Positions 17,932-30,058 of a stretch of DNA of 64,000 nucleotides are shown in pieces (within the stretch, counting starts at the first letter, position 1; every line of letters begins with the position of its first letter). The notes under the pieces are model-generated. The model was not told the origin of the DNA and did not search any database. It worked only from the letters and a program-made list of their open reading frames with translations. This stretch comes from Candidatus Poribacteria bacterium. GTDB taxonomy: Bacteria; Poribacteria; WGA-4E; PCPOR2b. A program made the position numbers and the translations under genes. Where the stretch lies: positions 1,472,001 through 1,536,000 of the forward strand of contig OZ242351.1 of the NCBI GenBank assembly GCA_965208675.1, written 5' to 3'.

Positions 17932-20900
17932 TCATGCCCAATTTTCACACAACGCCTCGGCTTGTTCTAGGACGGTCTCGGCAGCTTTGGCTTGTTTGTC
18001 GGGCGGGTAACCATAGCGCCGTAAGATTCGCTTCACCAATCGGCGCAGGTTGGCGCGGACGCTCTCCTTCATCGTCCAGTCGATGGTCACATTGTTGCGG
18101 ACGGTTTTTACGAGTTCCGTCGCTATTGTGCACAGGGTCTCATCTCCCAGCACCTGCACGGCACTATCGTTGGTTTCAAGCGCGTCGTAGAATGCCAATT
18201 CATCGCTCGTTAGCCCCAACTCCTCGCCGCGGTCACGCGCCTGACGCAACTCCTTCGCCGTTTGAATAAGTTGCTCGATTACCTGCGCGGCTTCTATCGT
18301 CCGGTTTTGATAGGCGCGAATCGAGCGTTCCAGCATTTCTGCGAACGACCGCGCTTGTACAACGTTTTGCCGCGAGTGGGTTTTGATTTCATCGTTTAGC
18401 AGCTTGTCCAGAAGTTCGACCGCGAGGTTTCTTTGTGGCAAATTGCGCACCTCTGCCAAGAATTCGTCGGAAAGAATTGAGATGTCCGGCTTCTCTAATC
18501 CCGCGGCGGCAAAGATGTCTACTACCCCTTCAGGAACGACCGCCTTGGATACCAACTGCTTGACGGCGAGTTCTGCCGCCTCGGACTGGGACTCCTCTCT
18601 AGCCGTCAGTTTTGCCAAGACACCTCGCACCGCTTGGAAAAACGCGACATCGTCCCGTATCTTGATTGCGCTTTCGTGCGGTACGACTAGCGAAAAGGCT
18701 TTGGCGAGCGCAGCAACCTCTTTCAGTAGACGGGTTTTGCCATCTTCCAAACCCAAGATGTGTTCTTGGGCGGCGGGGAGCAGTCTGAGACGTTCCTCGG
18801 CGTTTCCGTCAATCCACGACGACCAATCGAACGCATGAAACAACCCGGAGCAGATTTCGTACTTTTCCAGCATTATAGCAATCGCTTCAGCTTTATTGAG
18901 GGAGGGCTTGCCCTTTCCGCCGTTGTCCGTATAGTTAGTTAAAGCCTGCTTTAGATGGTAACCAATTCCGATGTAGTCTACAATTAGACCGCCGGGTTTT
19001 TCGCCGAATACGCGATTGACGCGCGCGATGGCTTGCATCAGGGCGTGACCTCGCATCGGCTTATCAACATACATAGTGTGAAGACTCGGCGCGTCAAAGC
19101 CGGTCAGCCACATGTCGCGGACGATTACAAATCTCAACGGGTCATCAGGGTTTTTAAATCGAACTGCCAGTTCTTCGCGCCGCGATTTGTTGCGGATATG
19201 CGGCTGCCACGACTCGTCCTCCGACGCCTCGCCCGTCATTACAACCTTTATGAATCCCTGCTTGTCATCTTCACCATGCCAATTCGGACGTTTTGCGACA
19301 ATGGCGTTGTAAAGATCAACACAGATTCGGCGGCTCATACAGACCACCATCGCCTTGCCGTCCATTGCATCCAATCGCTCTCCGAAATGCGTGATGATAT
19401 CATCGGCTACTAGACCCACACGCTTCTCCGTTCCGACCAGCGCTTCAAGCTGAGCCCATTTGGATTTGAGTCTCTCCTTATGCCTTTCCTCCTCTCCTTC
19501 GGTCACCTCCTCAAATTCTGGGTCAACATGAGGTTTCTCGTTCTCATCCAACTCAATTTTGGCGAGTCGGCTCTCGTAATAGATTGGGACGGTGGCGCCG
19601 TCTTCAACTGCTCGTTGTATATCGTAGATGCTGATGTAGTTTCCGAAGACGTTTCGGGTGTCACGGTCGGTCCCCTCAATGGGGGTGCCGGTGAAACCGA
19701 TAAATGATGCGTTCGGAAGTGCGTCGCGCATGTGACGGGCGAATCCATCTATAAAATCGTACTGGCTGCGATGGGCTTCGTCCGCTATGACAACGATGTT
19801 TCGCCGGTCAGAAAGTTTTGGGAATCGACGTTCTTCATCTTTAGGAAAAAACTTCTGTACTGTGGTAAAGACCACGCCGCCTGAAGCCACTTTCAGGAGT
19901 TCGCGCAGATGTCCTCTGTCCTTCGCTTGAACAGGTATTTGCCGCAAGAGCTGGTTACATCTAGCGAACGTGCCGAACAGTTGGTCGTCCAAGTCGTTGC
20001 GGTCGGTGATAACCACCAATGTCGGGTTTTGCATTTCCGGACGCAGGATAATGCTACCGGCATAAAATGCCATAGTCAAGCTCTTGCCCGACCCTTGTGT
20101 GTGCCAGATGACGCCGCAACGTCTGTCCCCGTCCGGACGCGACGCTTTCACGGTAGTGTCAACGGCGGCGCTAACAGCGTGGAATTGGTGATAACCGGCG
20201 ATTTTCTTGGCAATCGTATCGCCGCCCATTTCCTCAAAGACAATAAAGTGCTTGAGATAGTTCAGGAACCGCTTCTTGTCGAAGAGTCCCTTGATTGTCA
20301 CCTCCAGTTCCAGATCGGACGATGCGGCTTCGGTTTCTCCCTCAATTGTCCGCCACGGCATGAACCGTTCCTTATCTGCGGTCAAAGCGCCAACGCGGGC
20401 TTCCAGCCCGTCAGAGATGACCAGCGCCTCGTTGTACGTGAACAGCCGCGGAATTTCCTGCTTGTAGGTCTGAAGTTGGCGAAATGCTGACCAGACAGTG
20501 GCATTTTCGTCGGTCGGGCTTTTGAGTTCAATCACGCCTAGCGGAATACCATTGATAAACAGCACGATGTCCGGACGCCGTTCGGTTGCCCCCATCACAG
20601 TGAACTGATTAACCGCTAACCAGTCGTTGTTTTCGGGGTTCCCAAAATCCACCAATCGCACGCGGTCTCCACGAATAGTGCCATCTGAACCCCGATATTC
20701 GACCTCCACACTATCAACCAACATTAAGTGAAACGTCCGATTGTTTTGAACCGGTGAGGGAGAGTTCGGAGAAATCACTCGTTGAACGGCTTCTTCCTGA
20801 CATTCGGCGGGGATGTTCGGATTCAGGCGAGCAACCGCATCGCGCAGACGCTGTGTCAACACCACGTCATCGTAGCTTGAACGTTCGGCACTAGGCATCT

Positions 20901-21003
20901 CAGGAGCAATGTCAGGACCGTGTAGGACGGAATACTCCATACCCGCTAGCCAATCCATTGCCGTTTGTTCGACATCGGATTCGTAAATTGTAATGGGATT
21001 CAT
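17932..21003 (-). CDS. hsdR: Type I restriction endonuclease subunit R
   Basis: [18 protein letters not shown] nuclease motif, [34 protein letters not shown]. Confidence 0.97.
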
Positions 21004-21081: not shown

Positions 21082-22146
21082 TCATTGCTCCGTCGTTTGC
21101 TGTTGAGTGTAGCAAGCAACAAAATCGCTACTGTCAATATCCGGCTGTCCTTGGCGTGCATAATACGAAGAAAAGCGCGATACAATATCCTTTACGAAAG
21201 GAGGCGATATCTGAATTGAAGGTATTTCAAACTTATCGTCGAATTCATCTATTGCGAGCGAATGCAGTTTTCTGAAATTGAGAACTCCACCCTCAAAAAA
21301 AACAGTTGGCGGTAGCCAATGAAAATATTGGTGCTTGTTTTTCACAAGACTCTCGACACGGTCTTTTTTCCTACTTCCTTTAAGTGCATCGCTCATGCTT
21401 TCGATGTCAACCAAGAGAATTTGCTCTGTGTTAGATCTGCCGTTTTCACCTCTGACTACAAGGTCGCACGCTGGACTCAAAATCACAAACGGACGATCGG
21501 TTGTCTTATCTTTTACAATACTCCCGGTGGTGATATTGTCCGACATCGGTGGATGGAGGTAAACCTCCTCTGGAAAACACCGATCTTCACCTTCCTCAAG
21601 CAGTTCAAACAAGTGGTTTAGAGCGTATCGGAGGAGCGCCCTTTCAGTGCGCGCCGAATCTTCCTTACCATAAGAAACCCACGTTGCCAACTGTGGAAGA
21701 AGGTTCTTCAGAAAGACTTGGGTTAGGTGAATCTCAATTTCTCCTCGACCTCCCATTATTCGAGTGAGTCCTGTATCAAAGATCTTTTGAAACAAGAGCA
21801 AATCGGATTCATATGTAGATTCGTCACGCGTGCGTTTCTTAATCACCGAAGGATGATCGTCCACGGAATCAAGGAAAGCTGTGACAAAAATGACCGGTAT
21901 ACGGGTAAATGGGAGGCCTAGTTGGTGTAATAATTCATTCCCACCTTTTTTATCAAAACCCAACCACAAATCAATTATGGCACCATCAAAAGAACCATCA
22001 ATATTGTTCAAAGCCGCCGAAATGTCAGCAAAAATTTCGTACTCGACTTTTGAATTGTATTTTTCATTGAAAAACTCAACAGAATCTTCAAATAATCGTT
22101 GTTGATCTTCAGCATCCTCAACAAGCAGAATTTTCATCGTATTCAC
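21082..22146 (-). CDS. Response regulator receiver domain fused to an uncharacterised C-terminal domain
   Basis: KILLVED...AIIDL...IFVTA receiver. C-terminal TGSIV...ILSPACDL...FSSYYARQGQP domain, no HTH. Overlaps the upstream kinase stop. Confidence 0.8.
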   Translation of the reverse strand: MNTMKILLVEDAEDQQRLFEDSVEFFNEKYNSKVEYEIFADISAALNNIDGSFDGAIIDLWLGFDKKGGNELLHQLGLPFTRIPVIFVTAFLDSVDDHPSVIKKRTRDESTYESDLLLFQKIFDTGLTRIMGGRGEIEIHLTQVFLKNLLPQLATWVSYGKEDSARTERALLRYALNHLFELLEEGEDRCFPEEVYLHPPMSDNITTGSIVKDKTTDRPFVILSPACDLVVRGENGRSNTEQILLVDIESMSDALKGSRKKDRVESLVKNKHQYFHWLPPTVFFEGGVLNFRKLHSLAIDEFDDKFEIPSIQISPPFVKDIVSRFSSYYARQGQPDIDSSDFVACYTQQQTTEQ

Positions 22147-24302
22147 CCTTGTTTACCGTTTTTAGGTTGGAGTCTGAAATAAGCCCCATCATTTGACTCA
22201 AATGCTTTTAACTCAAGGCCATTTCTTTCTGCGGCTTCACCAGCTATGGTTAGTCCTAGACCGGTACCGTTAGGTTTGGTCGAAAATTGAGGTTCAAAGA
22301 TTATTTCACTCGCAATGTGGCTTGGTTCGATCCCAGGGCCAGTGTCACGATAGTCAATATGTACTAGCGAATCACGGTCAGTCAGAAGTGTAACGGTTAT
22401 GTTTCGTTTGGAGTTTTTTTTCTGGTTAATCCAATAGAGACTATTGTCGATGAGATTTGTAAATATTGCGTAGATATCTTGGGACCAAAAGGGGAACTTG
22501 AAATTGTCGGGTCCTATAATGTCAACAGATACCTTTTGCGTTTTCATTTCTCCTTCAAAGATGGACAAAGTGCCATTAATAGCTTTCTTCAAGTCCAAAT
22601 GTTTTTTTGCGCCTCGTTTTCCCGCGGCGAGCGGATCCAGCCGACGAAACAAGTGCACAAAGAACTCCATATTCTCCAATACGCCGGTAGCGATTTCCTC
22701 AAGTTTCACAATAGTATTGAAATCCCGGTTTTTTTGAAAGGAGTTTACCCAAGATTTTAGATGTGGTATTCGATTTTGAAAATAACTTAATGGCCGCCTG
22801 CCTTCATGGAGGATGACGTTCACGATTTTCCCAAGTGTGGCTTGACCCTGATATATGGCAACTGCTTGCCTAATTTCATCGGCACCTTTGTTTTTTTCTT
22901 CTTGTACTTGGATAACGATTTGATCGATCATTTCGGCCGTAGACTCATCAACGCCCCGACTTTTGAGTTGCCTTTGTATTTTTGACCTCATTGGATCGAA
23001 GGAAAAGAGGCGCCCTAACTTGTAGTCTACCTTTCGAGAAAATCTGCCTAGCCCTACTTTGTCCCTGTAATCGAAACGTAAAACTTCAAGCTCCATTATT
23101 ACCGCTGTGGTCACTTTACGTAGCAGATCGAACGCCTCATTTTCCCTCAATCCATCACGTGCGCTCTTTTCAATCAAACCAGAATCATTTTCGGATTCTA
23201 TTTGCACGTACCCTATTGCCTGATCGCTGCCGATGCACATGGACGGGTTTTGCACGCGTCTCGAATTGAGTTTTAACCAGTCATATTCGGCATCGCCCAG
23301 CGGACGAATTCGGAATCCACTTCGGTAAACACCGATACCGTTGTATTTGTTCAAAAGCTGTCTAGCTTCAAGTTTTCCGACTGAATTGCCCAAGTCGTTG
23401 GTGGAACTGCGCTGCACTAAGGCATCGATGGATTCTTTATCTCTATCATACACTCGAATATCAAAATCAAGATTACCACAACCTGTTGGTTTTTTGAAAT
23501 CAAACCGTAGCTCTTGTTTAACGGTGTTTCGAGCTTTCTGTGAAGAATATTCCAAGGTGCCTTTACCATCTATCCCGATATTACCTGCAATTTTATAGTC
23601 GTAGAGTTCAAAGAGTGGAAACGGTTCAACAATTTCCTCAAAATCCTGAACCCCAACAAAACCCCTAACCGTAAGATTAATTCGAAATTCGTCATTTGTA
23701 AAAATACTGCCTACTGGTGATTTCAGTTTCTTCAACTCAAATTGGAGCTTCTGAAAGCGGTCTTTGTTCCACTCCACAACACGCTTTGAATTTCCATGCA
23801 TAGTTAACCTAGTTCCAGATGGTCGAGTGGTTTTCTGTGTTTCAATGAGTATTTCTACATCATCAAGATATTCGGCTGTATGAAAGTCATTCCATTCAAG
23901 ACAGACGGTTGTTTTTTCACCGTCAGCGTTAACGGTCTCAAGAAGTAGATCGTCACCAAGGATGGACGAAGCATAGCGCCCTATACCTTTTCGGCCCTGC
24001 AATGTCCTACCGAGTGGACTCGTGCCCCTGTCACGTTTGTCCCGGGTTGAGGGCACCATCCATTTATGAATAACGTCGTTCCTAGACATGCCGTGACCAT
24101 TATCGTCAACCACGATTGCATACGTTTTCCCGTTGGAAGATGCTTTAAATTCAATATTTACATAAGTAGCATCAGCATCGTAGGCGTTTTTCACTAACTC
24201 GACTACTGCGGCATGATTGTCCTGAATTAGGTCTTCCCCTATCGTTAGAATGTGTCGTCCCGCCGGTCTAATTTTGTAGGTTGTGTGAGTGTTCACATCC
24301 AA
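22143..24302 (-). CDS. GHKL (MORC/HSP90-like) ATPase fused to a cytoplasmic histidine kinase
   Basis: N-terminal ELVKNAYDADA, DDNGHGM, GRKGIGR, followed by an S5-like region GVYRSGFRI. C-terminal LHEGRRPL H-box, NLIDNS, DTGPGI, FSTKPNGTGLGL. No TM helices. Confidence 0.88.
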   Translation of the reverse strand: MDVNTHTTYKIRPAGRHILTIGEDLIQDNHAAVVELVKNAYDADATYVNIEFKASSNGKTYAIVVDDNGHGMSRNDVIHKWMVPSTRDKRDRGTSPLGRTLQGRKGIGRYASSILGDDLLLETVNADGEKTTVCLEWNDFHTAEYLDDVEILIETQKTTRPSGTRLTMHGNSKRVVEWNKDRFQKLQFELKKLKSPVGSIFTNDEFRINLTVRGFVGVQDFEEIVEPFPLFELYDYKIAGNIGIDGKGTLEYSSQKARNTVKQELRFDFKKPTGCGNLDFDIRVYDRDKESIDALVQRSSTNDLGNSVGKLEARQLLNKYNGIGVYRSGFRIRPLGDAEYDWLKLNSRRVQNPSMCIGSDQAIGYVQIESENDSGLIEKSARDGLRENEAFDLLRKVTTAVIMELEVLRFDYRDKVGLGRFSRKVDYKLGRLFSFDPMRSKIQRQLKSRGVDESTAEMIDQIVIQVQEEKNKGADEIRQAVAIYQGQATLGKIVNVILHEGRRPLSYFQNRIPHLKSWVNSFQKNRDFNTIVKLEEIATGVLENMEFFVHLFRRLDPLAAGKRGAKKHLDLKKAINGTLSIFEGEMKTQKVSVDIIGPDNFKFPFWSQDIYAIFTNLIDNSLYWINQKKNSKRNITVTLLTDRDSLVHIDYRDTGPGIEPSHIASEIIFEPQFSTKPNGTGLGLTIAGEAAERNGLELKAFESNDGAYFRLQPKNGKQG

Positions 24303-25555
24303 TTCTCCCTTAACTTTTCGGCTATTTTCTGTGATAGAAGAACAGGCACCGCGTCGCCGATTTGGCGAAATACAGGAGTTCTTCTGGGTTTTCCGCCACG
24401 ACTTTCAAAGTAGTAGTCGTCTGGAAACGTCTGTAATCTAGCCGCTTCTCTAGGCGTGAGAGAACGATTCTGATTTATGTCAGGATGAATATAATAGTGG
24501 CCGTCGTTCGCTAAGTGTGCGACAATAGTATGGCAGAATGGTAGATTTTGAGCAACTACTTTAAATCGATCGACGAATGACTTACGCTGACGATGAGTTT
24601 TTAAGCGCTCTGGCAGATCATTGTAATTCAGTCGAGCCATTTTATCATTCCAGAGTTCTACGGCAATTCTGTAGATTTCAAGATCCTGTTGAGAGTTCGG
24701 CCGTGCTTGGTGCCATGTGACTGGGTAATTATCACAACGTATACCAACGTCGTACATCCACACCCCTTTGTAAGGTGCGACGCTACATGGTCCTGCGACG
24801 CCTTGCCCCGAATTAATCGCTGGGAGATCGGCTAGAATTTCTTCCACAAGAACTGTGGATACACATTTTTTCGGTTCTGGATAGAAACCTTCGGACTTTC
24901 CTCGTTTTCCAACAATTATCGTCCTTTTTCGATTCTGCGGGACGCCGTAATCTTTCGCGCACAGAGTCTGAACTTCCGTCGCATAGCCGCATTTACGGAA
25001 CTCCTGCCGCATAAGGTTCAAGTATGAGACTCCTCGCTCATTCTTCGCGGACAGAAGACCGGTTACGTTTTCGAACAAAAAATGAACCGGCCGGTATCTC
25101 TCTAAGAATCTAGCGTAAAACACATACAAATAATTCCGTTTATCATTTTTCATTCGGTCGCGTAAACGAGAGCGTCCTACTAGCGAATAAGCTTGACAGG
25201 GGGGACCGCCGATAATCAAGTCTAGTTTCTTACCGTTTAGCAAACTATCAAGCCGATCAAAGATACTTTGAAGGCTTACGTCAGAAATGTGTGAATTGAT
25301 AACAGAATCTAACGCCGTTCTCGGCACTTGTGAATATAAATCCGCTCGGCTAATGTGTCGGTTGAGATATTTGTAATATAACTCCCCATTCCCACATCCA
25401 TTTAGCCACCGAAATGCCATGCGTGTTCGCAGTGTGTAACATGCAGCTAAATCCATCTCAACATGGGCAATTGGATTAAATCCAGCGCGCATGAACCCCT
25501 CCGAGAGCCCGCCCGCACCTGCAAACAAATCGAGATAATTCAATGTCCTGCTCAT
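24293..25555 (-). CDS. DNA (cytosine-5)-methyltransferase
   Basis: DLFAGAGG (motif I), GGPPCQ (IV), ENV (VI), PQNRKR (VIII), REAARLQTFPD (IX), QIGDAV (X). Confidence 0.96.
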   Translation of the reverse strand: MSRTLNYLDLFAGAGGLSEGFMRAGFNPIAHVEMDLAACYTLRTRMAFRWLNGCGNGELYYKYLNRHISRADLYSQVPRTALDSVINSHISDVSLQSIFDRLDSLLNGKKLDLIIGGPPCQAYSLVGRSRLRDRMKNDKRNYLYVFYARFLERYRPVHFLFENVTGLLSAKNERGVSYLNLMRQEFRKCGYATEVQTLCAKDYGVPQNRKRTIIVGKRGKSEGFYPEPKKCVSTVLVEEILADLPAINSGQGVAGPCSVAPYKGVWMYDVGIRCDNYPVTWHQARPNSQQDLEIYRIAVELWNDKMARLNYNDLPERLKTHRQRKSFVDRFKVVAQNLPFCHTIVAHLANDGHYYIHPDINQNRSLTPREAARLQTFPDDYYFESRGGKPRRTPVFRQIGDAVPVLLSQKIAEKLRENWM

Positions 25556-25904: not shown

Positions 25905-27584
25905 TCAACTACAATCATATAGTCCCTTCTCCGTTCGACGGTCACATGAATCCCCTGATAGCAGTTTTGGTAGTAGAGTGTCGCGCAACTGAGAAAGTGT
26001 GTGTGATTGGTTCTCATTTGCTTCAATCCTAGCAAAAAGCGGATTCACAATTGAATCAAAACGGTGAAGTATCGAATCCGGTGGTAACGCGAATCGATAA
26101 CTAGGAACACCATCTTTGCTCAAATGTAACACCGTTGTGCCCGTTGTATATCCATTAATGTGAGCCTGGAAGGCATGACTTCGAAACAAGCAATAAAGGA
26201 ACCAAACGGAAACCGTTGATTCTAAGGGGCGGATTATTCCCAAATCCAACGATGCAACAAGTGTTTTATATTCACTGCTGGCTTGAACAAGTGCTGGTTT
26301 GCCAATTACCTCCGCTTCTTGTGTCACATCAGTATAGGAAACAACAAGCTCACCCGGGGTGATAACTTGTTCCGGTTTGTATCGTCCAGTATAAGATTTC
26401 AAGCCATCGGGACGGTAGCCACCACCACGCAAAATTGATTTTAGTGTAACCAACGCAGTGTCCGATTCTGTTAATTCGCTACTCTTGTATGAACGCCCTT
26501 TGACTATCTCAACAAGATTACCAATTTGTTCTATCTTCCACCCTTCCGGCATCTTTCCCAACGACGAATCCTGAAATGTAGATGGGAACAGAGCCGCGGA
26601 TTCGGCATCCATGCCAACGGGTTCTCGTCCCTCCGTTTTTGCCTGCACGGGATCAAAGTCCACAAACCACGACTTGAAGATAGCTCGTGCCATCGCCTCC
26701 AGCGTCTCGTTCATCTGCCGGTTGAGTTCCATTTTGTCGTCGAGCGAGCCGAGGATGTGGGCAATGCGGCGTTGTTGCTCAATGGGCGGAAGCGAAAGTT
26801 CAAACAAACCTATCGAATCAGGCGCAACTCTTTGTCGTCCTGTAGTACCTTGCATGGAATGAACCGCAAATGCTCTGAGTCTTGGATCTCTTGCTAAATA
26901 GTAAATGAACAGATTATCTGTTTTACCTTCGATTCCGGAGAGCACGATAAATTCAGTCGATCCATGACCAACTTCATTAGCTTTTAAGCAATTTACATAC
27001 GCAGTTTTACCGTTTTCGAGACAAGGAGTGATGCGCGCCAAAAGCGTATCTTCATTCTGAAATCGTGTGGCAGATCCATTGAATTCCTTAAATGAGTGTG
27101 AAGCAATTTCCCGTCTGAATGCTTCAATATCTTTCATAGAAACATGAGGTGCGGTTTTTCCTCTATGAAGCGTCCGGCGTGGGTTGATACTAACAACGTT
27201 ACCCAGTCTCACGAGCTCCCAGCTGTTATTCTCTTGAGTCCAACTTTGACGACTGTACTTCGATTCAGCAGTTTTTTTGCCTAATTTCTGTTCTTGTATC
27301 ACTTCATATCCTACAACAATCACGTTCTTGAAACTATCTGAAATCGCGTGCCAATCCTGAAAATCAACCCGAATTGGAAGGTCGGATTCCTCGAATGCCT
27401 CTTGCAATTTGCGCATTCGTCTCCGACTTAGCCGTTCATTGCCCACAACCGCAAGATCGAGATCGGAGTAATCTTTTGCTGTCCATTTGACTCGCGACCC
27501 GTAGGCGCGGACTTCACAATCGGGAACATGCTCAGCTAGTATGTGTTGAATTGTTTCAAGATATTTGGGATTGAGGTCAATCAT
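25905..27584 (-). CDS. hsdS: Type I R-M specificity subunit with N-terminal minimal nucleotidyltransferase (MNT) domain
   Basis: The first ~100 aa carry YGSRVKWTAKDYSDLDL (GS-X10-DXD). Two TRDs follow, with PPIEQQRRIAHILGSLDDK and LSQLRDTLLPKLLSG conserved regions, all in one ORF. Confidence 0.9.
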   Translation of the reverse strand: MIDLNPKYLETIQHILAEHVPDCEVRAYGSRVKWTAKDYSDLDLAVVGNERLSRRRMRKLQEAFEESDLPIRVDFQDWHAISDSFKNVIVVGYEVIQEQKLGKKTAESKYSRQSWTQENNSWELVRLGNVVSINPRRTLHRGKTAPHVSMKDIEAFRREIASHSFKEFNGSATRFQNEDTLLARITPCLENGKTAYVNCLKANEVGHGSTEFIVLSGIEGKTDNLFIYYLARDPRLRAFAVHSMQGTTGRQRVAPDSIGLFELSLPPIEQQRRIAHILGSLDDKMELNRQMNETLEAMARAIFKSWFVDFDPVQAKTEGREPVGMDAESAALFPSTFQDSSLGKMPEGWKIEQIGNLVEIVKGRSYKSSELTESDTALVTLKSILRGGGYRPDGLKSYTGRYKPEQVITPGELVVSYTDVTQEAEVIGKPALVQASSEYKTLVASLDLGIIRPLESTVSVWFLYCLFRSHAFQAHINGYTTGTTVLHLSKDGVPSYRFALPPDSILHRFDSIVNPLFARIEANENQSHTLSQLRDTLLPKLLSGDSCDRRTEKGLYDCS

Positions 27585-27990
27585 TATGCGCCTCTAGCGT
27601 GATGAAAAGTTGTCTTGCGTCATGTGCAAACTTGGTCGCATCCTCAAATACACTTTGAGCAGTATCTTCATTGTAAACATGAGAGGTCTGGTTGCGTCCG
27701 AAGTGATAATCCATCCAAAGTTCTACATCGGTGATGAGGCGATTTTCTGCCGCTAGGCAATATAGTTTCCGACGCGTAACACCGTCAACGTAGGTGTTAC
27801 CGACATTCTCTTTAAGCCATCGCTGTATCATTTTCCAACAAAGTTCGTACACCACCTCAAAATTATGAATGACTCCGGCGCGCACCGTGTCCTGCAAATC
27901 TTCCTCCCAAGTCTCCATATTACTCGCTGTTCTGATAGAACGTTCCAAAGCGCCCATAGCTTGTGCCAAACTGTCCAATTGTAAACTCAT
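27577..27990 (-). CDS. HEPN-fold nucleotidyltransferase substrate-binding protein (HI0074 family), putative RNase toxin
   Basis: RAGVIHNFEVVYELCWK and RNQTSHVY (R-X4-H-X-Y) motifs. Overlaps the start of the MNT-HsdS gene. Confidence 0.88.
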   Translation of the reverse strand: MSLQLDSLAQAMGALERSIRTASNMETWEEDLQDTVRAGVIHNFEVVYELCWKMIQRWLKENVGNTYVDGVTRRKLYCLAAENRLITDVELWMDYHFGRNQTSHVYNEDTAQSVFEDATKFAHDARQLFITLEAHND

Positions 27991-28198
27991 TGTTTATCCC
28001 TATACTCTCCACCGTTTCCAAGTTCGCTCAATGGATTCTCCAAGGCCGGTTGAACAGAGTGAACCCTTCCGACTGACCTTCTAAATCTAGTCTTCTGACC
28101 GCTGGCAGCCAAATGCATCATTGTGATAGAAAACCATTCGGGTGTTCAATTGCCTTATCGCTACGGTAGTTGGCGTCTAAACTCCTCGTCACCGAAAC

Positions 28199-29809
28199 TC
28201 ATGAACTATCTTGAAATCCGACTATTTTTAAACTCTCGGCAATAGCCTCGTCCTGCCGTCTTGCCTCCGCCATCTGATCCGCCAGTCGATTCGTCAGTCG
28301 GGTTATTTTCTCCTCAAACGGCTCATCGTCATCCTCTTGAGCTTCGGCGCCGACGTAACGACCGGGGGTCAAGACACTCCCGTGTTCGTGTATCTCCTCT
28401 AAAGTCGCGCTTTTGCAGAAGCCCGGGATATCCGAATATTCGCCTGCTGCTTCAGCGCCACGCCAAGCGTGGTAGGTATCGGCGATGCGGGTTATGTCTG
28501 CTTCGCTCAGTTCGCGGTGTACACGGTCAATCATGGATCCGAGTTTCCGGGCGTCAATGAATAATGTTTCGTTTGCACGTTCCCGGAAGCGCGGGGCTTT
28601 TTTGTCTCGCGCCAGAAACCAGAGACACACGGGGATTTGCGTGGAATAAAACAGTTGACCCGGCATGGCGACCATGCAATCAACCAAGTCTGAATCAACG
28701 ATATTTTTGCGTATTTCGCCTTCAGTGGACGTGTTAGAACTCATTGAGCCGTTCGCCAATACGAATCCGGCGATGCCGTTGGGCGCGAGGTGATAGATGA
28801 AGTGCTGCACCCACGCAAAGTTGGCGTTGCCAACTGGCGGCGCCCCATACACCCAACGTTTATCATAACGCAATCGCTCACCGCCCCAGTCACTGCTATT
28901 AAACGGCGGATTAGCTAGAATGTAATCAACTTTCAGGTCGGGGTGAAGTTCTCGGTGGAAACTGTCTGCGTGCTCCTCTCCAAGATTGGCGTCAATGGCG
29001 CGGATGGCGAGATTCATCTTCGCCAACTGCCACGTGGTCGGGTTGGACTCTTGCCCGAAAATTGAGATGTCGTCGCGCCCTCCGCCGTGCGCTTCAACGA
29101 AGGCTTCGCTCTGGACGAACATGCCGCCCGAACCGCAACATGGATCGTACACCCGTCCCTTGTACGGCGCCAGCATCTCAACGAGCACCTGCACAACACA
29201 GCGGGGGGTGTAGAATTGACCGCCCCTTTTGCCTTCGGCACTAGCGAATTGTGAGAGGAAATATTCGTAGACTCGACCGAGTATATCTTTTGAGCGATTC
29301 TCCTCTTCTCCCAAACCGATTGTGCCGATTAGGTCAACTAATTCCCCGAGGCGGCGCTTGTCGAGCATCGGACGGGCGTAGTTTTTAGGAAGCACACCCT
29401 TGAGGCTCGGGTTTTCGCCTTCAATCGCAATCATGGCATTATCAATCAGGGTTCCAATTTCCGGATGCTTGGCGCTGCCTTGCAGATAAGACCAGCGGGC
29501 TTCCTTAGGGACGTAGAAGATGTTTTCTGCCAAAAATTCATCGCGGTCATCGGCAAACTGGACACGGGCAGTTTCGTCTTTGAGGTAGAGCTCACTCTCA
29601 GGATTCGCAGATTCTGAAAGCAGCAAATTGTACCTTTCCTCGAAGGTGTCTGAAATGTACTTGAGGAAGATTAACCCCAACACCACATGTTTGTATTCGG
29701 CGGCGTCAAGGTTATTGCGGAGTTTGTCCGCCGCTTGGTACAGGGTCGCTTCGAAGCCCAGCGCCGCGCCGTTATTCTTGGATTTTGTGTTTCGTTTCTT
29801 TTTCGCCAT
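28199..29809 (-). CDS. hsdM: Type I R-M methyltransferase subunit M
   Basis: [21 protein letters not shown]. Likely start is ATG 29809 (ORF open to 29875). Confidence 0.97.
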
Positions 29810-30058
29810 AGTCTGTTTTTTTATTTCCGCTTTCTCGCTTGGCATCTTCACTACATTGGAGACACACCGATTCAACTTTCATGATAACCCATCTCACGGA
29901 GATTTTCAAGTCGGATTAACCAAAAACAGGAAAGACACCGCCGAACACCTTCTGGGCATATTATGGTGTTTCCGACGGAGGAAAATAGACATCGGTTGAA
30001 GATTTTGATAAGAACCGCGTTCTATTTTTTGGGCTTTAGATTAGTATACAATTCATGG

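Follow-up and report, generated by a model that had tools for sequence, protein, structure and literature searches.

We analysed a 64,000-nucleotide stretch of a Candidatus Poribacteria genome (assembly GCA_965208675.1, contig OZ242351.1, positions 1,472,001 to 1,536,000; hereafter the window), in which a type I restriction-modification (R-M) operon carries an MNT nucleotidyltransferase antitoxin domain joined in frame to the specificity subunit HsdS, with a gene for a HEPN RNase toxin directly upstream. All operon genes listed lie on the minus strand, and coordinates are positions in the window (Table 1). Read along that strand, hsdM is followed by a 208-bp gap, the HEPN gene, the MNT::HsdS open reading frame (ORF), the methyltransferase gene dcm, genes for a GHKL ATPase-histidine kinase and a receiver protein, and hsdR. 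The gene set of a HindI-like type I R-M system is complete, comprising hsdM, an hsdS with two target recognition domains (TRDs) and hsdR, each with its domains, and hsdR is kept apart from hsdS by the dcm, GHKL/histidine kinase and receiver cassette. A class I type VII toxin-antitoxin (TA) pair of the HI0074/HI0073 family sits at the hsdM-hsdS junction of this operon, with antitoxin family and motif, toxin family and motif, and neighbouring genes all found.

Table 1. Features of the R-M operon and its embedded HEPN/MNT pair (CR, conserved region; pLDDT, predicted local distance difference test).
Feature	Position	Strand	Evidence
hsdM, type I N6-adenine methyltransferase subunit	28199..29875	-	PF02384 1e-107, PF12161; NPPF motif in translation
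Gap with scar of deleted Schlafen/AlbA_2-RecG_C gene	27991..28202	-	61 nt, 93% identical to hsdM end + Schlafen start in L004
HEPN RNase toxin, HI0074/PF08780 family (class I HepT), 137 aa	27577..27990	-	PF08780, TIGR01987
MNT antitoxin domain, HI0073 family, fusion aa 1-98	27291..27584	-	PF18765; 1no5 E 1.7e-22
Flexible linker, MNT to TRD1, without in-frame ATG	27228..27290	-	pLDDT <50 at aa 104-119
HsdS specificity subunit (TRD1-CR1-TRD2-CR2), in frame with MNT	25905..27227	-	PF01420; PADLOC Specificity_I 1.6e-102; model matches 7vs4, 1yf2
Passenger cassette in operon	21082..25555	-	three genes between hsdS and hsdR
C5 DNA methyltransferase (dcm), best PADLOC match DrmMII	24293-25555	-	profile match
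GHKL ATPase fused to histidine kinase	22143-24302	-	profile match
Receiver-domain protein	21082-22146	-	profile match
hsdR, HindI-like type I restriction subunit	17932..21003	-	TIGR00348 above cut-off, PF11867, PF04313

The MNT::HsdS ORF (25905-27584) encodes 559 amino acids without an internal stop, and Pfam assigns PF18765/PF01909 (Pol-beta-type MNT) to residues 10-96 in addition to PF01420. The MNT motif consists of G29-S30-X10-D41-X-D43 (GS-X10-DXD, 27456-27500) and is accompanied by D74, while the codon of Trp34, a residue associated with the fusion, lies at 27483-27485. The HEPN protein matches PF08780 (1e-31) and, above its cut-off, the HI0074 model TIGR01987, and it carries R99-N-Q-T-S-H104-V-Y106 (R-X4-H-X-Y) at 27673-27696. 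The ORFs, Pfam matches and motifs agree with the initial annotation of this DNA, which had proposed an MNT domain fused to HsdS with an intact HEPN partner inside a type I R-M operon, and both motifs that it called intact are present in the translations. Of the overlapping stops and starts that it described, the one between HEPN and MNT is real (8 bp, 27577-27584), whereas hsdM and HEPN are separated by the gap.

Comparison with solved structures placed the pair closest to HI0073 (1no5, E 1.7e-22) and HI0074 (1jog, 1.8e-12), followed by the Legionella pair (Legionella HEPN, 8xdj). The NCBIfam MntA equivalog model, which describes a different MNT subfamily, scored 28.2 on the MNT domain against a cut-off of 60. 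In the AlphaFold2 model of MNT::HsdS (mean pLDDT 92.6, predicted template modelling score 0.75), the MNT domain superposes on 1no5 with a root mean square deviation of 0.9 Å (TM 0.96 on target), and the HsdS part adopts the canonical two-TRD fold, matching the HsdS structures 7vs4 and 1yf2. The linker at residues 104-119 is disordered in this model (pLDDT <50), and the fused MNT ends without helix alpha4. Alignment with the Legionella HEPN revealed that His42 of the window HEPN occupies the metal-ligand site Q44, with Glu45 (Legionella E47) intact; besides the window, 6 of 52 relatives carry the same Gln-to-His change. A predicted complex of MNT::HsdS with two HEPN copies scored 0.01 and was used as evidence neither way.

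To survey the arrangement, a GTDB scan was made by MNT, and the best 80 of 587 relatives were analysed, which are those most similar to the window and thus a biased sample. The loci were sampled through their MNT, and gene context covers these 80 loci and 7 plasmid records (one fused Zymomonas, five Acetobacter and one stand-alone Zymomonas), with the Xanthomonas and Pseudomonas fusion contexts outside the sample. Among the best 80, the genomes closest to the window locus are Candidatus Poribacteria. The MNT-HsdS fusion was found in 56 of the 80 loci, across 8 named phyla (Poribacteria 22, Chloroflexota 22, Pseudomonadota 3, Planctomycetota 2, Latescibacterota 2, and one each in Bipolaricaulota, Verrucomicrobiota and Actinomycetota; 3 unclassified), the rest being 5 unfused loci in hsd context and 19 stand-alone pairs or MNTs. 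A HEPN gene lies immediately upstream in 52 of the 56 fused loci, with R-X4-H-X-Y in 51; within the fetched DNA, hsdM is present in 53 and hsdR in 47, most misses falling at contig or flank ends. Plasmid pZMOB01 of the cultured Zymomonas mobilis ATCC 10988 has the same order of hsdM, HEPN, MNT::hsdS (WP_014466389) and hsdR. MNT-HsdS fusions beside HI0074 genes are therefore recurrent, and the possibility that the initial annotation itself had raised, a one-off stop loss or assembly error, does not hold.

Searches at the protein level gave a consistent picture. The MNT part retrieved 749 proteins of 307-979 amino acids, with PF01420 in all 120 of the 120 matches listed, and the best 150 of the 50%-identity representatives, taken without a length filter, comprised 84 HsdS fusions, 29 short proteins and 37 longer proteins without an HsdS match, many of which are apparently truncated fusions. 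The fused Zymomonas MNT found 145 proteins (PF01420 in 118 of the 120 matches listed), and relatives of that fusion include proteins of Xanthomonas, Pseudomonas, Ferrovum, Nitrosomonas, Methylobacillus and Azoarcus. The first 100 positions of the PADLOC profile PDLC03138, labelled only as a specificity subunit, already correspond to MNT. No MNT matches were found in phage genomes, and no DNA-level HEPN+MNT matches in E. coli genomes. The HsdS family can do without the domain: 65 of the 120 HsdS nearest by conserved region have no MNT, although about 12 of them begin within a linker of the fusion type and probably represent split fusions. In a wide lineage of such operons, the antitoxin appears to be a permanent N-terminal appendage of HsdS. 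The partner of this MNT type belongs to a second HEPN subfamily in 7 loci and is a DUF86 HepT in locus L057. Tandem MNT-MNT-HsdS proteins also occur (P0004, which is L037, 7983-9884, as well as P0184, P0192 and P0194), and both MNTs of one such protein sit in different parts of the tree.

Analysis of sequence conservation indicated constraint on both partners. The G, S and three Asp of MNT are invariant in 56/56 fused loci, and a survey of 295 full-length single-MNT fusions showed GS-X10-DXD unaltered in 294. The ratio of nonsynonymous to synonymous substitutions (dN/dS), given as medians on the same 99 pairs with dS of 0.15-1.2, was 0.16 for HEPN, 0.16 for MNT and 0.12 for HsdM, which shows purifying selection on HEPN and MNT. 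Such selection would lend indirect support to HEPN toxicity, to its RNase activity and to neutralisation by Tyr AMPylation. The toxin is absent in 4 fused loci, truncated or frameshifted in 4, and carries Lys for the Legionella E47-equivalent Glu in 5, in total 13 of 56, and the antitoxin is never damaged. The fused loci without HEPN (L003, L004, L005 and L063) all have intact MNT catalytic residues. The Glu-to-Lys change arose in several lineages (L010, L015, L018, L044 and L079) and possibly reflects repeated attenuation of the toxin; its frequency among fused loci (E45K, 5/50 vs 0/18) is not significant (p 0.31). In four loci with a stand-alone MNT (L052, L062, L077 and L082), the upstream HEPN is reduced to a few terminal codons, so the toxin is also lost outside R-M operons.

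Among 179 locus pairs with MNTs at least 75% identical, identity falls below 35% for TRD1 in 132 pairs, for TRD2 in 154 and for both in 119. The TRDs are exchanged freely under a constant MNT, which would indirectly support methylation/restriction activity with the MNT attached; the suggestion of the initial annotation that the fusion prevents swapping of hsdS is contradicted by the 119 of 179 pairs in which both TRDs differ. In 4 of the 56 loci, a truncated HsdS follows an MNT that is intact. The linkers of single-MNT fusions span 4-34 residues, with an ATG in 5 of 58 and any start codon with a Shine-Dalgarno-like motif in 6 of 58. Because most linkers lack a restart codon, most systems cannot produce HsdS separately from the antitoxin; the two form a single polypeptide, which ties antitoxin supply to the presence of HsdS. 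The same observation (53/58 linkers without ATG) upholds one part of the initial proposal that the fusion ties toxin neutralisation to the presence or state of the R-M complex, namely the part on presence. In the window, HsdS (~25905-25950) ends LLSG-DSC, its last ~13 residues departing from the family ending LLSG-EIR found in 81 of 119 relatives; downstream of the conserved helix, a small frameshift or a sequencing error is the probable cause.

Comparison of the Zymomonas and Acetobacter plasmids revealed fused and unfused forms of the antitoxin on nearly the same R-M system. Four of the five Acetobacter loci have the order hsdM, HEPN, mnt, hsdS, hsdR, in which mnt and hsdS are separate but abutting and translationally coupled; in the fifth, hsdS is shortened beside insertion sequences and the HEPN/MNT pair survives. 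Identity between the Acetobacter and the fused Zymomonas loci is 92-95% for HsdM and 90-94% for HsdR, and falls to 63-65% for HEPN and 44-46% for MNT, with the Acetobacter HEPN nearer to that of the stand-alone Zymomonas pair (80-81%). The junction is thus held repeatedly by this TA family, with an exchangeable cassette and optional fusion. The two plasmid types, with R-M subunits 90-95% identical, offer a natural control for the effect of fusion.

Residue 34 of MNT distinguishes most fused from most free domains. Among full-length fusions it is Trp in 292 of 295, among free MNTs in 7 of 37; HI0073 and most free MNTs have Gly there. In the broad tree, Trp34 marks 51 of 53 fused and 4 of 34 unfused MNTs; the fused Zymomonas MNT has Trp and the unfused Acetobacter MNTs have Gly. 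This position falls in the solvent-exposed G-loop, as described for the Legionella MNT in sections of PMC11586414, and Trp34 is the most suggestive sign that MNT and the R-M complex may touch. The link between Trp34 and fusion could be explained by shared ancestry. Independent pairs on supported branches numbered 4 (sign test p 0.5; a further comparison gave 1 pair, also not significant), and in MNT trees of only 100 columns a single origin of the fused group was not rejected (approximately unbiased (AU) test, p 0.059), although fused and free MNTs interleave and supported branches force at least 4 changes. Covariation over conserved columns of 295 fusions placed no MNT-HsdS pair in the top 100, a weak test at an effective sequence number (Neff) of ~141. 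Across 946 pairs, MNT identity correlates with that of HsdM and HsdR (Spearman 0.78/0.79). An apparent tendency of MNT to follow HsdM better than its toxin does was discarded: it is gone without the second HEPN subfamily and Zymomonas (0.76 vs 0.73) and reverses within Poribacteria (0.48 vs 0.67).

The fusion system joins two kinds already known. Characterised class I type VII HepT/MntA pairs include HI0074/HI0073 of H. influenzae, HEPN-MNT of Legionella and SO_3166/SO_3165 of Shewanella (passages of PMC7641770 and PMC11586414). The window shares with them the PF08780/PF01909 pair, both signature motifs, the fold and adjacent coupled genes, and like the Legionella MNT as covered in those passages, its MNT lacks alpha4. 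It differs in that the antitoxin is fused to HsdS, that the pair belongs to a type I R-M operon, that Trp replaces Gly in the G-loop and that, relative to the Legionella HEPN, His stands at the Q44-equivalent site. PrrC of EcoprrI (passages of PMC12707154 and PMC3506569) resembles the window system in that a type I hsd operon encodes a HEPN RNase whose silencing involves, or in the window would involve, the Hsd complex. As described there, PrrC is an ABC-ATPase-HEPN protein that the complex keeps latent and that is activated on Stp inhibition, whereas the window has a small HEPN, a separate enzymatic antitoxin within HsdS and no ABC domain; membership of the PrrC/RloC family was rejected for a 137-aa stand-alone PF08780 protein without ABC-ATPase or PADLOC hit. 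In Ronin, too, HsdMS suppresses a toxin of the same locus, according to parts of bioRxiv 10.1101/2023.04.06.535777, but that toxin is a 61-aa membrane protein, hsdR is usually lacking and there is no nucleotidyltransferase; here a HEPN takes the place of that toxin and hsdR accompanies it (within the fetched DNA in 47/56 fused loci), and assignment to Ronin was also rejected.

Other TA modules also lie in hotspots of hsd operons. DarTG2 in a type I R-M island (PMC12255303) and the RM-embedded candidates of bioRxiv 10.1101/2024.01.29.577857 are, in the passages concerned, separate genes between hsdS and hsdR, unlike the window fusion, and the main texts of both contain no MNT or nucleotidyl terms. 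FhepTA, in the portions of PMC13000451 that treat it, has an MNT domain that retains its activity as a C-terminal fusion and gains stability from it; that MNT is attached to its own toxin, and the window MNT to an R-M subunit, leaving the toxin free. Sections of PMC3710099 note that HEPN-T clusters with R-M operons and that HEPN-M is occasionally fused to methylase domains, and type I R-M loci are stated in general terms to carry HEPN toxins (a passage of PMC3506569). The Zymomonas ZM4 HsdSp paper, as far as its matching passages go, concerns a different locus (PMC8432527) and was set aside as a prior description. A full-text literature search returned no MNT-HsdS fusion by title or abstract opening, although the RM-embedded candidate lists of bioRxiv 2024.01.29.577857 could contain the pair. 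The fusion is unnamed in the term-matched passages of PMC4621449, PMC3632139, PMC3710099, PMC2701414, PMC7641770, PMC13000451, PMC8432527, PMC11586414, PMC12914056, PMC12255303, PMC12707154, PMC3506569, PMC12839542 and bioRxiv 2023.04.06.535777 and 2024.01.29.577857, and a term search in parts of the supplements of PMC3710099 and PMC7641770 gave nothing relevant. The MNT::HsdS fusion is real, widespread and apparently undescribed.

We tentatively favour, at a probability of about 0.45, a type VII HEPN/MNT pair in which the supply of antitoxin is firmly bound to the making of HsdS and which would act as a second line of defence. In characterised relatives, MNT attaches several AMP groups to the Tyr of R-X4-H-X-Y, and the RNase is blocked (passages of PMC7641770). 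By analogy, the window MNT, with ATP/Mg, would oligo-AMPylate Tyr106 in the HEPN dimer and hold the RNase inactive. The antitoxin would be made 1:1 with HsdS and carried on the methyltransferase by a flexible tether, and the toxin would escape when HsdS synthesis, HsdS stability or ATP supply fails, leading to growth arrest behind restriction; the start of hsdS would be indispensable while the toxin is active. The coupling would then operate through supply and location, not through allosteric sensing of the R-M complex, which fits the flexible and variable linker, the absence of MNT-HsdS covariation and the Acetobacter versions that are unfused yet translationally coupled. Also in favour of this reading are the recurrence of the fusion, the HEPN gene immediately upstream in 52 of 56 fused loci, the conserved catalytic residues of MNT, the low dN/dS of both partners, losses that hit the toxin and never the antitoxin, and the scarcity of ATG codons in the linkers. 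The Legionella MNT, as parts of PMC11586414 describe, lacks alpha4 and modifies incompletely, and at low ATP its toxin stays unmodified.

Several observations weigh against supply coupling. Post-segregational killing sits uneasily with covalent AMPylation, unless the modification is only partial, which has been reported for the Legionella pair. Retention of an active toxin is no better in fused than in stand-alone loci (inactive in 13/56 vs 6/19, Fisher p 0.55), the MNTs nearest to that of the window, in L003-L005, are all without HEPN, and the one-sided loss of toxin is partly built in, the loci being found through their MNT. Supply coupling alone leaves the near-invariant Trp34 unexplained. 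Position by itself is weak evidence, the operons carrying many other passengers (DarTG, TIR, PIN, MazF, HicAB, Fic, Schlafen).

The conserved Trp would find a role if the tethered MNT docked on the R-M complex through its G-loop and kept HEPN in its AMPylated state for only as long as the complex stayed whole and free of blockage. Binding of an anti-restriction protein (Ocr, ArdA or Stp-like), disassembly, or ATP drain during restriction would switch AMPylation off or release bound HEPN, and the operon would shift from DNA cutting to RNA-destroying abortive infection, as in the precedents PrrC and Ronin. We consider such a guard possible, though less likely than supply coupling, to which it is the main rival. 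The distribution of Trp34, its exposed position and the correlation of MNT with HsdM and HsdR argue for it, but the Trp link is inseparable from ancestry, the linker is disordered and of variable length, inter-domain covariation is lacking in the weak test, the preferential tracking of HsdM by MNT vanished, 13 of 56 loci manage without an active toxin, and unfused versions exist on HsdM 92-95% identical. The exchangeable cassette, the stand-alone pairs interspersed in the tree, the many nearest HsdS without MNT and the unrelated passengers would suit another history, in which a mobile HEPN-MNT cassette entered the hsdM-hsdS hotspot, lost its stop codon once and became a tolerated tag on HsdS, an ordinary TA pair without a link to R-M. 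This history seems rather improbable to us, since the fusion persists across 8 named phyla with MNT identity down to ~45%, since different HI0074/HI0073 cassettes, fused or not, occupy one junction while other passengers are patchy, and since Trp34 is near-invariant in fusions and variable in free MNTs.

Intact catalytic residues in the four HEPN-less fused loci, the tandem fusions (P0004/L037, P0184 and P0192) and the closeness of the G-loop change to the active site would agree with a fused MNT that has been domesticated: it would modify a further substrate, be it an R-M subunit, a phage protein or nucleic acid, and control the R-M complex, with HEPN being optional. We give such domestication little credence, as HEPN is kept in 52 of 56 fusions with its acceptor Tyr in 51, and the HEPN-less cases are perhaps recent losses. 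An assembly error or one-off stop loss could draw on the other small lesions of the window (the HsdS C-terminus and the Schlafen scar), but with hundreds of independent fusions, including one on the annotated plasmid of a cultured Zymomonas, its probability is negligible, and an assembly artefact is ruled out by the recurrence across genomes.

If antitoxin supply is indeed coupled to HsdS, cell survival would be tied to an anti-virus restriction machine, and the pair may serve as a backup defence. HEPN-MNT pairs are described as the most abundant predicted TA family (a passage of PMC7641770), and type I R-M has few known guards; their recurrent covalent link to HsdS provides a concrete hypothesis for the trigger. 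The fusions are annotated only as 'restriction endonuclease subunit S'; deleting hsdS for better transformation of such strains could remove the antitoxin, with a lethal outcome or selection for toxin loss.

Elsewhere in the operon, the start of hsdM is uncertain, the ATG at 29809 being the probable one, and a scan for promoters and terminators stayed near chance level (9 vs 6.3 and 7 vs 5.4). In 13 related loci, all or part of a Schlafen/AlbA_2-RecG_C gene (PF04326+PF13749) occupies the interval from hsdM to the MNT gene. The passenger cassette of the window has a lower GC content (0.41-0.46), and GHKL+REC genes again lie between hsdS and hsdR in the close relatives L003 (10834-14195) and L005 (11406-15287), without a dcm match. 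Passengers across these operons include Schlafen, TIR, AAA_21+DUF4276, DarTG, PIN, MazF, HicAB, Fic and Mrr. In the Poribacteria operons L004-L023, L028 and L061, the hsdS-hsdR interval repeatedly holds TIR/SEFIR proteins and, ahead of DUF4276, a (TIR-)AAA_21 ATPase, which may make up a further defence module.

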